NCBI GenBank assembly: GCA_963665745.1 | Contig: OY762443.1 | Location: 2,182,301 to 2,246,300 of the forward strand | Reading direction: 5' to 3' | Length of the DNA: 64,000 bases | Origin: Dehalococcoidia bacterium | GTDB lineage: Bacteria > Chloroflexota > Dehalococcoidia > Lucifugimonadales > VXLM01 | In this document: piece by piece, positions 51,294 to 54,339 of the stretch | Layout of the letters: each line of letters opens with the position of its first letter | Numbering within the stretch: position 1 is the stretch's first letter | Translations under genes and position numbers: made by a program | The notes under the pieces: model-generated | The model's database searches: none | What the model was told of the DNA's origin: nothing | Seen by the model: only the letters and a program-made list of their open reading frames with translations

Positions 51294-51452
51294 CGGCACT
51301 GCGGACTTGTTTTCGCGGGCGCTATGTCACTCGGTTTATACCAGTTCGGTTTGATGTCACCATATTCTTACCTAACCCGGCCTCTCTGGATTCCCGCCTT
51401 CGGAGACCCTTGCACAACCCCACCCCCTGTCATTGCTACGAAAATAGACCTG

Positions 51453-52670
51453 TCAGGCAGCTGCGAGAGTCACGTCGTATCCCAGCCGATTGAGCCGTCG
51501 GACGGTATAGCGCACTATTGCCTGGTGGTTGCGCTCTTCGAAGTATTGCCCACCAAGGTCCCTGTGTCGAGTGCCGTCTCTGAGCATATGGTAGATGATG
51601 ACCAGGATCGAGTGAGCCACGGCGATGATCGCCCGCTTTTTGCCCCTGCGAGCCGCTATGCGGCGGTATTGGGCCGACAGGTACGTGTCGCGAGTCTTCA
51701 CAGAGGCCCAAGCTGCCTCCACCAGCGTCGACTTCAGCCACGGATTGGCGCGCCTGGTGCGACCGCCGATCCGTTTGCCCGCGCTCTCGTTATTGCCGGG
51801 ACACATCCCCGCCCACGATGCCAAGTGCTGCGACGTAGGGAACCGATTCATGTCCGTACCGATCTCCGCCACCACTTGCTCGGCACCTCGACGTCCCATT
51901 CCTGGAATCTCGTCGATCCTCTCGATCACCTCCTCAAAAGGGCGCGTCCGATCCTCCACCTCCTCACTCATCCGCTCGATCTCACGCTCCAAAAAGTCGA
52001 GATGTCGCAGATAGCTGTCCAACATCATCCGCTGGTGGGAACCCATCGACCCTTCCAGTGCATCGACCAACAGCAAGCGCTTGTCACGAAGTCGCCCCCT
52101 GGCCATGGACGCCAACGTCTCGGGATCGTCTTCCCCAGCGATCATAGCCCTCAACATTGCGCGTCCCGAAGCACCCACGACATCAGTTGCCACAGAACTC
52201 AACTTGATGTTGCCCCCTTCCAACACCTTCTGAATGCGGTTGACCACCTGCGCGCGCTGTCTAATCAACTGTCGGCGATGGCGAGTCAACTCTCGCAACT
52301 CCCGCTGAGGACGGTCAGGGACAAAGCTCGGTCGCAACAGTCCATGCCGCAGAAGGTCGGCTATCCACTCGGCGTCCTTCATGTCCGTCTTGCGACCCGG
52401 AACCGTCTTGATGTGGGCAGCGTTCACCACCCACACCTCGAAATCGTCCTCCAGCAGATTGTACAAAGGCTGCCAGTATACCCCCGTGCTCTCCATCGCC
52501 ACGTGGGTCACACCTACCTCACCCAGCCAATCCGCCAGGCTCAACACGTCCTTGGTCATCGTCTTGAATCTGCGAGTCCGTTTACCCTCCGGCGTGATGA
52601 CACACGCCACGACAGTCCGCTTATGGACGTCCAATCCACAACTCCGCTCGTGTACAACTTCCATGCTCAA
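51453..52670 (-). CDS. IS110-family transposase (DEDD/RuvC-like recombinase)
   Basis: SCGLDVHKRTVVAC, AMESTGVYW and IPGMGRRGAEQVVAEIG..RFPTSQHLASWAGMCPGNNESAGK are typical of IS110/Transposase_20. Confidence 0.9.
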   Translation of the reverse strand: MSMEVVHERSCGLDVHKRTVVACVITPEGKRTRRFKTMTKDVLSLADWLGEVGVTHVAMESTGVYWQPLYNLLEDDFEVWVVNAAHIKTVPGRKTDMKDAEWIADLLRHGLLRPSFVPDRPQRELRELTRHRRQLIRQRAQVVNRIQKVLEGGNIKLSSVATDVVGASGRAMLRAMIAGEDDPETLASMARGRLRDKRLLLVDALEGSMGSHQRMMLDSYLRHLDFLEREIERMSEEVEDRTRPFEEVIERIDEIPGMGRRGAEQVVAEIGTDMNRFPTSQHLASWAGMCPGNNESAGKRIGGRTRRANPWLKSTLVEAAWASVKTRDTYLSAQYRRIAARRGKKRAIIAVAHSILVIIYHMLRDGTRHRDLGGQYFEERNHQAIVRYTVRRLNRLGYDVTLAAA

Positions 52671-52885
52671 CCCTCCAACAAGACTCCCGATTGGCGGGCA
52701 ACCTCTCCAAAACTGACATTGCTACACGTGCTCCCAGCCGTCTGGGGCGACAATAGGTGGTGCCTTCAGGTCGCCAGTGTCATATTCCGAACCGGGCTCG
52801 CGGCACCATTGACAACCGAACTCGTCACCAAGCGGGGCATACCCATTTTCATTCCAGGTGGTGAGGGTGGCAACCCTCATGAGAT
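52671..52885 (-). ncRNA. Candidate bridge-RNA-encoding 5' non-coding arm of IS110 copy 1
   Basis: A 215-nt non-coding arm lies upstream of the recombinase, against about 21 nt downstream. It contains gtgtcatattccgaacc (52777..52793), which resembles the reconstructed target tgtc-att-ccgaac. No covariance test is possible here. Confidence 0.3.
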
Positions 52886-52906
52886 ATTGCTACGAAAATA
52901 GACCTG

Positions 52907-54124
52907 TCAGGCAGCTGCGAGAGTCACGTCGTATCCCAGCCGATTGAGCCGTCGGACGGTATAGCGCACTATTGCCTGGTGGTTGCGCTCTTCGAAGTAT
53001 TGCCCACCAAGGTCCCTGTGTCGAGTGCCGTCTCTGAGCATATGGTAGATGATGACCAGGATCGAGTGAGCCACGGCGATGATCGCCCGCTTTTTGCCCC
53101 TGCGAGCCGCTATGCGGCGGTATTGGGCCGACAGGTACGTGTCGCGAGTCTTCACAGAGGCCCAAGCTGCCTCCACCAGCGTCGACTTCAGCCACGGATT
53201 GGCGCGCCTGGTGCGACCGCCGATCCGTTTGCCCGCGCTCTCGTTATTGCCGGGACACATCCCCGCCCACGATGCCAAGTGCTGCGACGTAGGGAACCGA
53301 TTCATGTCCGTACCGATCTCCGCCACCACTTGCTCGGCACCTCGACGTCCCATTCCTGGAATCTCGTCGATCCTCTCGATCACCTCCTCAAAAGGGCGCG
53401 TCCGATCCTCCACCTCCTCACTCATCCGCTCGATCTCACGCTCCAAAAAGTCGAGATGTCGCAGATAGCTGTCCAACATCATCCGCTGGTGGGAACCCAT
53501 CGACCCTTCCAGTGCATCGACCAACAGCAAGCGCTTGTCACGAAGTCGCCCCCTGGCCATGGACGCCAGCGTCTCGGGATCGTCTTCCCCAGCGATCATA
53601 GCCCTCAACATTGCGCGTCCCGAAGCACCCACGACATCAGTTGCCACAGAACTCAACTTGATGTTGCCCCCTTCCAACACCTTCTGAATGCGGTTGACCA
53701 CCTGCGCACGCTGCCTAATCAACTGTCGGCGATGGCGAGTCAACTCTCGCAACTCCCGCTGAGGACGGTCAGGGACAAAGCTCGGTCGCAACAGTCCGTG
53801 CCGCAGAAGGTCGGCTATCCACTCGGCGTCCTTCATGTCCGTCTTGCGACCAGGGACCGTCTTGATATGGGCAGCGTTCACCACCCACACCTCGAAATCG
53901 TCCTCCAGCAGATTGTACAAAGGCTGCCAGTATACCCCCGTGCTCTCCATCGCCACGTGGGTCACACCTACCTCACCCAGCCAATCCGCCAGGCTCAACA
54001 CGTCCTTGGTCATCGTCTTGAATCTGCGAGTCCGTTTACCCTCCGGCGTGATGACACACGCCACGACAGTCCGCTTATGGACGTCCAATCCACAACTCCG
54101 CTCGTGTACAACTTCCATGCTCAA
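52907..54124 (-). CDS. IS110-family transposase (copy 2)
   Basis: The 405-aa product is identical to copy 1 despite at least seven nucleotide differences. Confidence 0.9.
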   Translation of the reverse strand: MSMEVVHERSCGLDVHKRTVVACVITPEGKRTRRFKTMTKDVLSLADWLGEVGVTHVAMESTGVYWQPLYNLLEDDFEVWVVNAAHIKTVPGRKTDMKDAEWIADLLRHGLLRPSFVPDRPQRELRELTRHRRQLIRQRAQVVNRIQKVLEGGNIKLSSVATDVVGASGRAMLRAMIAGEDDPETLASMARGRLRDKRLLLVDALEGSMGSHQRMMLDSYLRHLDFLEREIERMSEEVEDRTRPFEEVIERIDEIPGMGRRGAEQVVAEIGTDMNRFPTSQHLASWAGMCPGNNESAGKRIGGRTRRANPWLKSTLVEAAWASVKTRDTYLSAQYRRIAARRGKKRAIIAVAHSILVIIYHMLRDGTRHRDLGGQYFEERNHQAIVRYTVRRLNRLGYDVTLAAA

Positions 54125-54339
54125 CCCTCCAACAAGACTCCCGATTGGCGGGCAACCTCTCCAAAACTGACATTGCTACACGTGCTCCCAGCCGTCTGGG
54201 GCGACAATAGGTGGTGCCTTCAGGTCGCCAGTGTCATATTCCGAACCGGGCTCGCGGCACCATTGACAACCGAACTCGTCACCAAGCGGGGCATACCCAT
54301 TTTCATTCCAGGTGGTGAGGGTGGCAACCCTCATGAGAT
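54125..54339 (-). ncRNA. Candidate bridge-RNA-encoding 5' non-coding arm of IS110 copy 2
   Basis: Same sequence as 52671..52885. This copy is flanked by genomic DNA rather than by another IS end. Confidence 0.3.

Follow-up and report, generated by a model that had tools for sequence, protein, structure and literature searches.

A probably genuine head-to-tail IS110-group dimer at a REP-like hairpin in a Dehalococcoidia genome, and the silent differences between its copies

How two copies of one insertion sequence (IS) come to stand head to tail in a bacterial chromosome, encoding the same protein and differing at silent positions crowded into a single patch, is the question raised by locus A of a Dehalococcoidia bacterium (assembly GCA_963665745.1). 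The window, that is, the whole 64,000-nucleotide stretch of DNA analysed, lies within a single 3.146-Mb contig. Unit-to-unit alignment resolved locus A into two head-to-tail 1454-bp units, A1 (51432–52885, minus strand) and A2 (52886–54339, minus strand), with an exact 1454-bp periodicity across 51432–54339 and a boundary at 52885/52886, just as the initial annotation had described a directly abutting pair of IS110-family units. The repeat extends 3 nt past A2 into a third ATT core (54340–54342), giving the order core-IS-core-IS-core. Each unit comprises an ATT core and a 1451-bp element, whose left and right ends in A1 lie, in element orientation, at 52885 and 51435, and only the natural core sits between the abutted ends. 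We consider the dimer at locus A most likely to be real.

Full pairwise comparison of the units revealed exactly seven mismatches, at unit positions 684, 823, 829, 913, 967, 970 and 982, which correspond to window positions 52115, 52254, 52260, 52344, 52398, 52401 and 52413 in A1 and to each of these plus 1454 in A2. At least seven differences had been read by eye within roughly 52115–52425 of the first copy, all synonymous and in one patch, and the comparison agrees: the variable patch (52115–52413 in A1, 53569–53867 in A2) contains all seven, every one is synonymous, and neither an even spread nor a non-synonymous change was seen. The recombinases of A1 and A2 are identical, as had also been stated. 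For seven sites placed at random in 1454 bp, a span of 299 bp or less has p ~4e-4, so the clustering is real.

Further copies had been predicted elsewhere in the genome, and the genome search found seven full copies in total at five loci: A1/A2, B, C1/C2, D and E. While B, D and E are single, C1/C2 is a second tandem pair (G000:C1:686691-689598), so that dimers occupy two of the five loci. A2 is 100% identical over all 1454 bp to the single copy B (G000:C1:621263-622716). The ends of the IS were set by these five independent insertion loci; the ATT flanks the element at all five and also stands at the centre of both dimers, nothing else is duplicated, and there are no terminal inverted repeats.

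The recombinase gene of A1 (51453–52664, minus strand) encodes 403 aa when read from its ATG, and that of A2 (52907–54118, minus strand) encodes the same protein. The ORF list starts A1 at a TTG (52670, 405 aa); the ATG at 52664, which is preceded by GGAGG, is the more likely start. The protein matches PF01548 (DEDD_Tnp_IS110, 2.4e-38) and PF02371 (Transposase_20, 7.2e-23) in Pfam, and it aligns with the IS621 transposase (8wt6; E 7e-19) with the D, E, D, D and Ser (ES) motifs in register, as well as with the ISCro4 bridge recombinase, again with the catalytic motifs in register. An N-terminal DEDD RuvC-like domain and a C-terminal Tnp domain with the catalytic Ser are thus both present, as is characteristic of the IS110 group, and the coding strand carries 215 nt before the gene and 21 nt after it, which is the layout of that group.

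The left-end non-coding arm (52671–52885 in A1, 54125–54339 in A2, minus strand) is a candidate bridge RNA region. It is near-invariant, the seven copies differing in it only by a 2-nt swap at the core-adjacent tip (unit positions 1452–1453), and zero variable sites in 212 nt would arise by chance with a probability of ~0.03. Within the arm, a left-target-guide-like segment (52784–52793, minus strand) is a 9–10-nt same-sense copy of the left target plus core (p ~8e-4 for a chance 9-mer match), and 3' of it a left-donor-guide-like segment (52718–52725, minus strand) is an 8-nt same-sense copy of the right-end tip plus core. In IS621 the left guides base-pair with bottom strands (PMC11208158). 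The equivalent segments of a 68%-identical relative (G014) match the relative's own, different, left target and right-end tip, and this covariation favours the guide assignment. A 4-nt arm segment considered as the right target guide was dropped because the G014 relative shows no covariation there. Rfam gave no match to the arm, and its single-sequence fold was no better than those of shuffled sequences (z-score +1.3). Based on the Pfam domains, the homology to IS621 and the covariation of the guide-like segments with the target and donor ends of the relative, the element is best classified as an IS110-group bridge-recombinase IS.

Insertion is sequence-specific. At four of the five loci the element occupies one and the same 14-nt site, in which the ATT core opens a REP-like hairpin; this site is repeated genome-wide, with six perfect copies unoccupied. 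At locus A, the left half of the REP-like target (51388–51431) is a flank that recurs beside copy E and elsewhere in the genome, and the right half (54343–54456) comprises the hairpin-forming repeat and its inverted partner, the third ATT core being at the same time the first 3 nt of the hairpin stem. The fifth locus, that of the C1/C2 dimer, is not a REP; it agrees over 11 contiguous nt with the near-copy of the target in the arm. When the C1/C2 dimer was excised in silico, a 390-codon open frame was restored, which indicates that the second dimer interrupts a gene; this gene was not found in five relatives. Locus A lies within a 4.5-kb islet (REP, IS pair, REP, viperin) with no counterpart in the sister species G002, so there is no orthologous site by which the event at locus A could be polarised. 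A 41-nt match at G000:C1:1610609-1610649, considered as a deletion remnant, proved instead to be the end of a miniature element. The genus also carries head-to-tail arrays of miniature derivatives.

The central junction of locus A (52866–52905) consists of the right-end tip, ATT (52886–52888) and the left-end tip in this order, and is therefore the exact circle (donor) site, here built into the chromosome. IS621 is known to form a promoter at its junction (PMC13626964), and the initial annotation had suggested that the dimer permanently reproduces the RE-LE junction together with such a promoter. The first part holds, since the junction equals the circle junction exactly, but no junction-spanning promoter was found by a consensus scan of 52600–53000, a scan that cannot prove absence. 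The sole match, a pair of promoter-like hexamers with a 17-nt spacer (52845–52873, minus strand), lies wholly within the left end and overlaps a 6-bp hairpin, and in the best junction-spanning pair picked by eye the second hexamer matches at only 3/6 positions. The G014 relative retains both the hexamers and their 17-nt spacer, and the first hexamer forms the loop of the 6-bp hairpin, which carries compensatory changes in that relative; as the hexamer doubles as a conserved hairpin loop, promoter and structure are inseparable here. A dimer-fixed junction promoter is thus not supported for this IS.

The seven differences between A1 and A2 were compared with the polymorphism of the whole family. 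There are 23 variable sites among the seven copies, 20 of them coding; synonymous changes account for 16 of these and conservative replacements for four, a silent excess with p <= 3e-5. Drawing seven silent sites out of seven from a pool of 16 synonymous and four non-synonymous sites has p = 0.15, so the synonymous-only pattern, which had been put forward as a feature of the pair, is unremarkable in itself and belongs to the polymorphism of the family as a whole. The four-gamete test was failed by 80 of 253 site pairs, with a minimum number of recombination events (Rm) of 4. Wherever A1 departs from A2, its allele recurs in two to four other copies and mostly in sister-species copies too: the A1 alleles at 684–829 and 967–982 match D and E, that at 913 is common to C1 and C2, and at 955 and 961 A1 keeps derived alleles, unlike D or E. 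At almost all sites two decayed copies in G002 have the D/E-type allele, which marks the D/E type as ancestral and the A2/B type as derived; A1 carries ancestral alleles at 684, 823, 829, 967, 970 and 982. Given its identity to B, A2 may alternatively have joined an older A1 only recently.

A single extant copy as donor of the whole A1 patch was rejected, since D/E-type copies differ from A1 at 913, 955 and 961 and C-type copies at 823, 829, 967, 970 and 982. The earlier suggestion of purifying selection plus gene conversion from a third copy therefore stands as regards the selection (16 of 20 coding sites silent) and the exchange among copies, and fails as regards one extant donor. The second dimer presents a similar picture: C1 and C2 differ only at six sites, within unit positions 472–668 (p ~3e-4), where C1 equals copy E exactly, and the two share a backbone absent from all other copies, which is most simply explained by a self-made dimer followed by one conversion tract. 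We thus read the A1/A2 patch as old family polymorphism reshuffled by gene conversion or recombination among copies. Patchy silent divergence of this kind is concerted evolution among copies under purifying selection and is not special to the pair.

Taking these results together, we think it probable that locus A is a genuine IS110-group dimer at the ATT of a REP-like hairpin, most likely formed via the element's own recombination pathway, with differences that are reshuffled family polymorphism. Two recombinase-mediated routes could be involved. Either the left junction of one sister chromatid would be exchanged with the right junction of the other, or an excised circle would re-insert at the junction of a resident copy; both would yield core-IS-core-IS-core exactly as seen. 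The seven silent differences would then be pre-existing variants redistributed among the copies and not new mutations, and their silent bias would stem from purifying selection that has long acted on the recombinase throughout the family. Of 96 excision events recorded in experiments with CazIS110-1, 3 ended in tandem repeats (bioRxiv 10.1101/2025.10.25.684509), a 2026 preprint reported 437 tandem duplications of complete IS110 modules with half-site donor matches enriched at the repeat boundaries, and for the head-to-tail arrays of ISPpu10 a sister-chromatid model with inter-sister strand transfer has been proposed (bioRxiv 10.64898/2026.03.19.712850). As we read it, this literature supports the element's own pathway.

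The same junction sequence would also result from host homologous recombination, in which a RecA-dependent single crossover integrates an excised circle into a resident copy and heteroduplex repair leaves the patch. Patchy repair of this sort would explain a 200–300-bp block of alternating alleles, and the identity of A2 to copy B is compatible with a circle derived from B. The sequence fits sister-chromatid exchange, circle insertion and RecA-dependent circle integration alike and so does not separate the RecA route from the recombinase routes; but the tandem formation seen in IS110 experiments and the published half-site reactions make the element's own pathway sufficient, and we hold the host route to be a possible though not a likely origin.

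An assembly or polishing artefact, in which the tandem copy number or the assignment of variants is wrong because a mixed population with seven near-identical repeats was assembled, appears unlikely. The genome is probably a long-read MAG (95% complete, 5.4% estimated contamination) in which strain mixing or polishing could misassign variants, and mosaic allele patterns are also what mis-mapped reads would produce. The exact junction pattern of the locus A dimer had zero matches in genome and metagenome contig collections, so that no independent assembly carries it. Moreover, whole-genome self-comparison found three tandem IS dimers in all: besides the two IS110 pairs there is one of an unrelated IS1595-family element, a perfect dimer that could hint at a habit of the assembly as well as at biology. 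Against this, long reads comfortably exceed the 2.9-kb array, the core-IS-core-IS-core junctions are exact to the base in two dimers at unrelated loci, and the strong signature of purifying selection on the variants indicates that these are biological. Tandem IS110 modules are also documented elsewhere in the literature. Among 80 loci encoding relatives of the recombinase, one, in a Tepidisphaeraceae MAG, carries a full tandem pair of a related 1543-bp IS110 unit, and adjacent copies occur at two others.

Two further readings concern the fate of the dimers. It is rather improbable, in our judgement, that they are persistent because the resident left junction, which retains the strongly recognised half-target plus core, is a preferred landing site, with arrays growing by self-targeting and the donor junction acting as a master site that sheds circles while the resident copy stays in place. 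We give a still lower rating to a maintained functional dimer, whose permanent donor junction or junction promoter would over-express the downstream copy and shed circles without loss of the chromosomal copy. That two of the five occupied loci hold dimers speaks for it, as do the junction promoter of IS621 and the non-identity of the partner copies, which implies that the dimers did not arise within the last few generations, unless unlike copies were joined to make them. On the other side stand the lack of a junction-spanning promoter match in the scan described above and the behaviour of the CazIS110-1 repeats, which reverted without extra circles and were judged by-products (bioRxiv 10.1101/2025.10.25.684509); neither IS110 dimer was shown to be conserved in other genomes. 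Finally, the idea that the differences began as point mutations after the duplication, under the filter of selection and with no exchange among copies, would account for seven silent changes out of seven but is effectively refuted by the clustering of the sites, the widespread four-gamete failures among mosaic copies and the presence of the A1-distinguishing alleles in at least two other copies and mostly in G002 as well, which rules out fresh mutation.

Tandem duplication of IS110 elements is itself already known from the recent literature; locus A is no new kind of system and leaves the mechanism unchanged. What it offers is a clean natural case, from an uncultured Dehalococcoidia lineage, of a rearrangement only recently described in work on bridge recombinases, where it ranks as a by-product of IS110 recombination. 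It shows that such dimers can be common within one genome, and that dimer partners can differ by short conversion tracts; from such tracts it follows either that the dimers go back further than a single event or that pairing between unlike copies is possible. With dozens of REP-like targets before it, a donor junction in the chromosome could also drive inversions and deletions.

Among known systems, the tandem dimers (IS30)2, (IS21)2 and that of IS911 (PMC9333248) resemble locus A in that abutted chromosomal ends mimic the circle junction, whereas these elements have DDE transposases and inverted repeats; a strong junction promoter or a hyper-reactive junction has been demonstrated for them. 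ISPpu9 and ISPpu10 of Pseudomonas putida (PMC12288879; bioRxiv 10.64898/2026.03.19.712850) likewise take a fixed position in a repeated extragenic hairpin and form head-to-tail arrays, with tandem non-coding modules near the IS. They belong to another phylum and use an unrelated repeat, and their arrays carry cargo or small-RNA modules in place of bare IS dimers. The tandem repeats of CazIS110-1 resemble locus A in that complete IS110 units follow one another head to tail and meet at the donor boundary, but the experimental repeats have been described as transient by-products, while here two dimers stand in a 3.1-Mb genome and their partners differ by a single 200–300-bp patch of alleles common to other copies. 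With IS621 and ISCro4 (PMC11208160, PMC11208158, PMC13626964), protein identity is low, the core is ATT here and CT there, and the promoter-like hexamers of the present element lie inside the left end, unlike the junction-spanning promoter of IS621. The likeness to these two lies in the two-domain recombinase with its aligned D, E, D, D and Ser motifs, in the short identical core at both ends with neither terminal inverted repeats nor target duplication, and, for IS621, in the order and polarity of the guide-like segments, left target before left donor, in the long non-coding 5' arm.

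A second head-to-tail dimer of the IS110-group element that forms the window pair A1/A2 was found in the same genome at G000:C1:686691-689598 (locus L118:1192-4099). This insertion site is non-REP, and the dimer interrupts a 390-codon open frame without a Pfam match. Its two copies, designated C1 and C2, differ at only six sites, all within unit positions 472-668, where copy C1 is identical to the single copy E. A perfect tandem dimer of an IS1595-family element, with a period of 1098 bp and 100% identity, is also present in this assembly at G000:C1:2416629-2418825 (locus L117:2130-4326). 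It encodes a transposase of 312 aa and is adjoined by an MTase-HNH gene, and the block composed of this gene and the IS1595-family element occurs once more, at G000:C1:1455591-1458198. The IS1595-family dimer is relevant to deciding if the tendency toward tandem IS pairs belongs to the organism or to the assembly. In a Tepidisphaeraceae MAG, a related IS110 unit of 1543 bp likewise forms a tandem pair (L081:2724-5822). Its copies differ at three places, none of them beyond nt 10 of the unit, and copy 2 is followed by 13 nt that match its own beginning instead of the beginning of copy 1.

Among the seven copies of the window element, non-coding variation is confined to the two tips, and the 212-nt guide region shows none. 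The right-end variant is a T/G change directly past the stop codon (unit position 20, window 51451), the left-end variant is a dinucleotide swap adjoining the ATT core (unit positions 1452-1453, window 52883-52884), and the two are linked in all seven copies. Nucleotides 7-22 of the left end form a 6-bp hairpin (window 52864-52879, minus strand, with an equivalent in A2), which overlaps the promoter-like first hexamer and in which the changes found in a 68%-identical IS110 relative (genome G014) and in the miniature modules are fully compensatory.

The final 41-45 nt of the left end also occur as a high-copy module beside REP-like hairpins in genomes of the same genus that lack the IS, being seen at many sites in the relatives G001, G003, G005, G006, G008-G011 and G013-G015; in G001 (L020), such modules are joined head to tail via ATT. 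The genome that contains the window carries one such module within a miniature element of ~100 bp (G000:C1:~1610540-1610652, L008), which consists, in this order, of 15 nt of right end, ~40 nt of other sequence and 41 nt of left end, and is flanked by ATT.

The REP cluster, the window pair and a viperin-like gene make up a 4.5-kb islet (window 51334-55900) that is missing from the sister species, where the flanking genes lie ~200 bp apart. Since the viperin-like gene (54809-55681, minus strand) reads toward the left end of A2, read-through from it could feed the IS.

At L011 and L026, the G014 relative and a miniature element are arranged head to tail, and the start of the miniature element resembles the right end of A1/A2. 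A segment of this relative that resembles a left-target guide matches the end of the neighbouring miniature element, so the apparent target of this relative is the terminus of a different IS110-type element.
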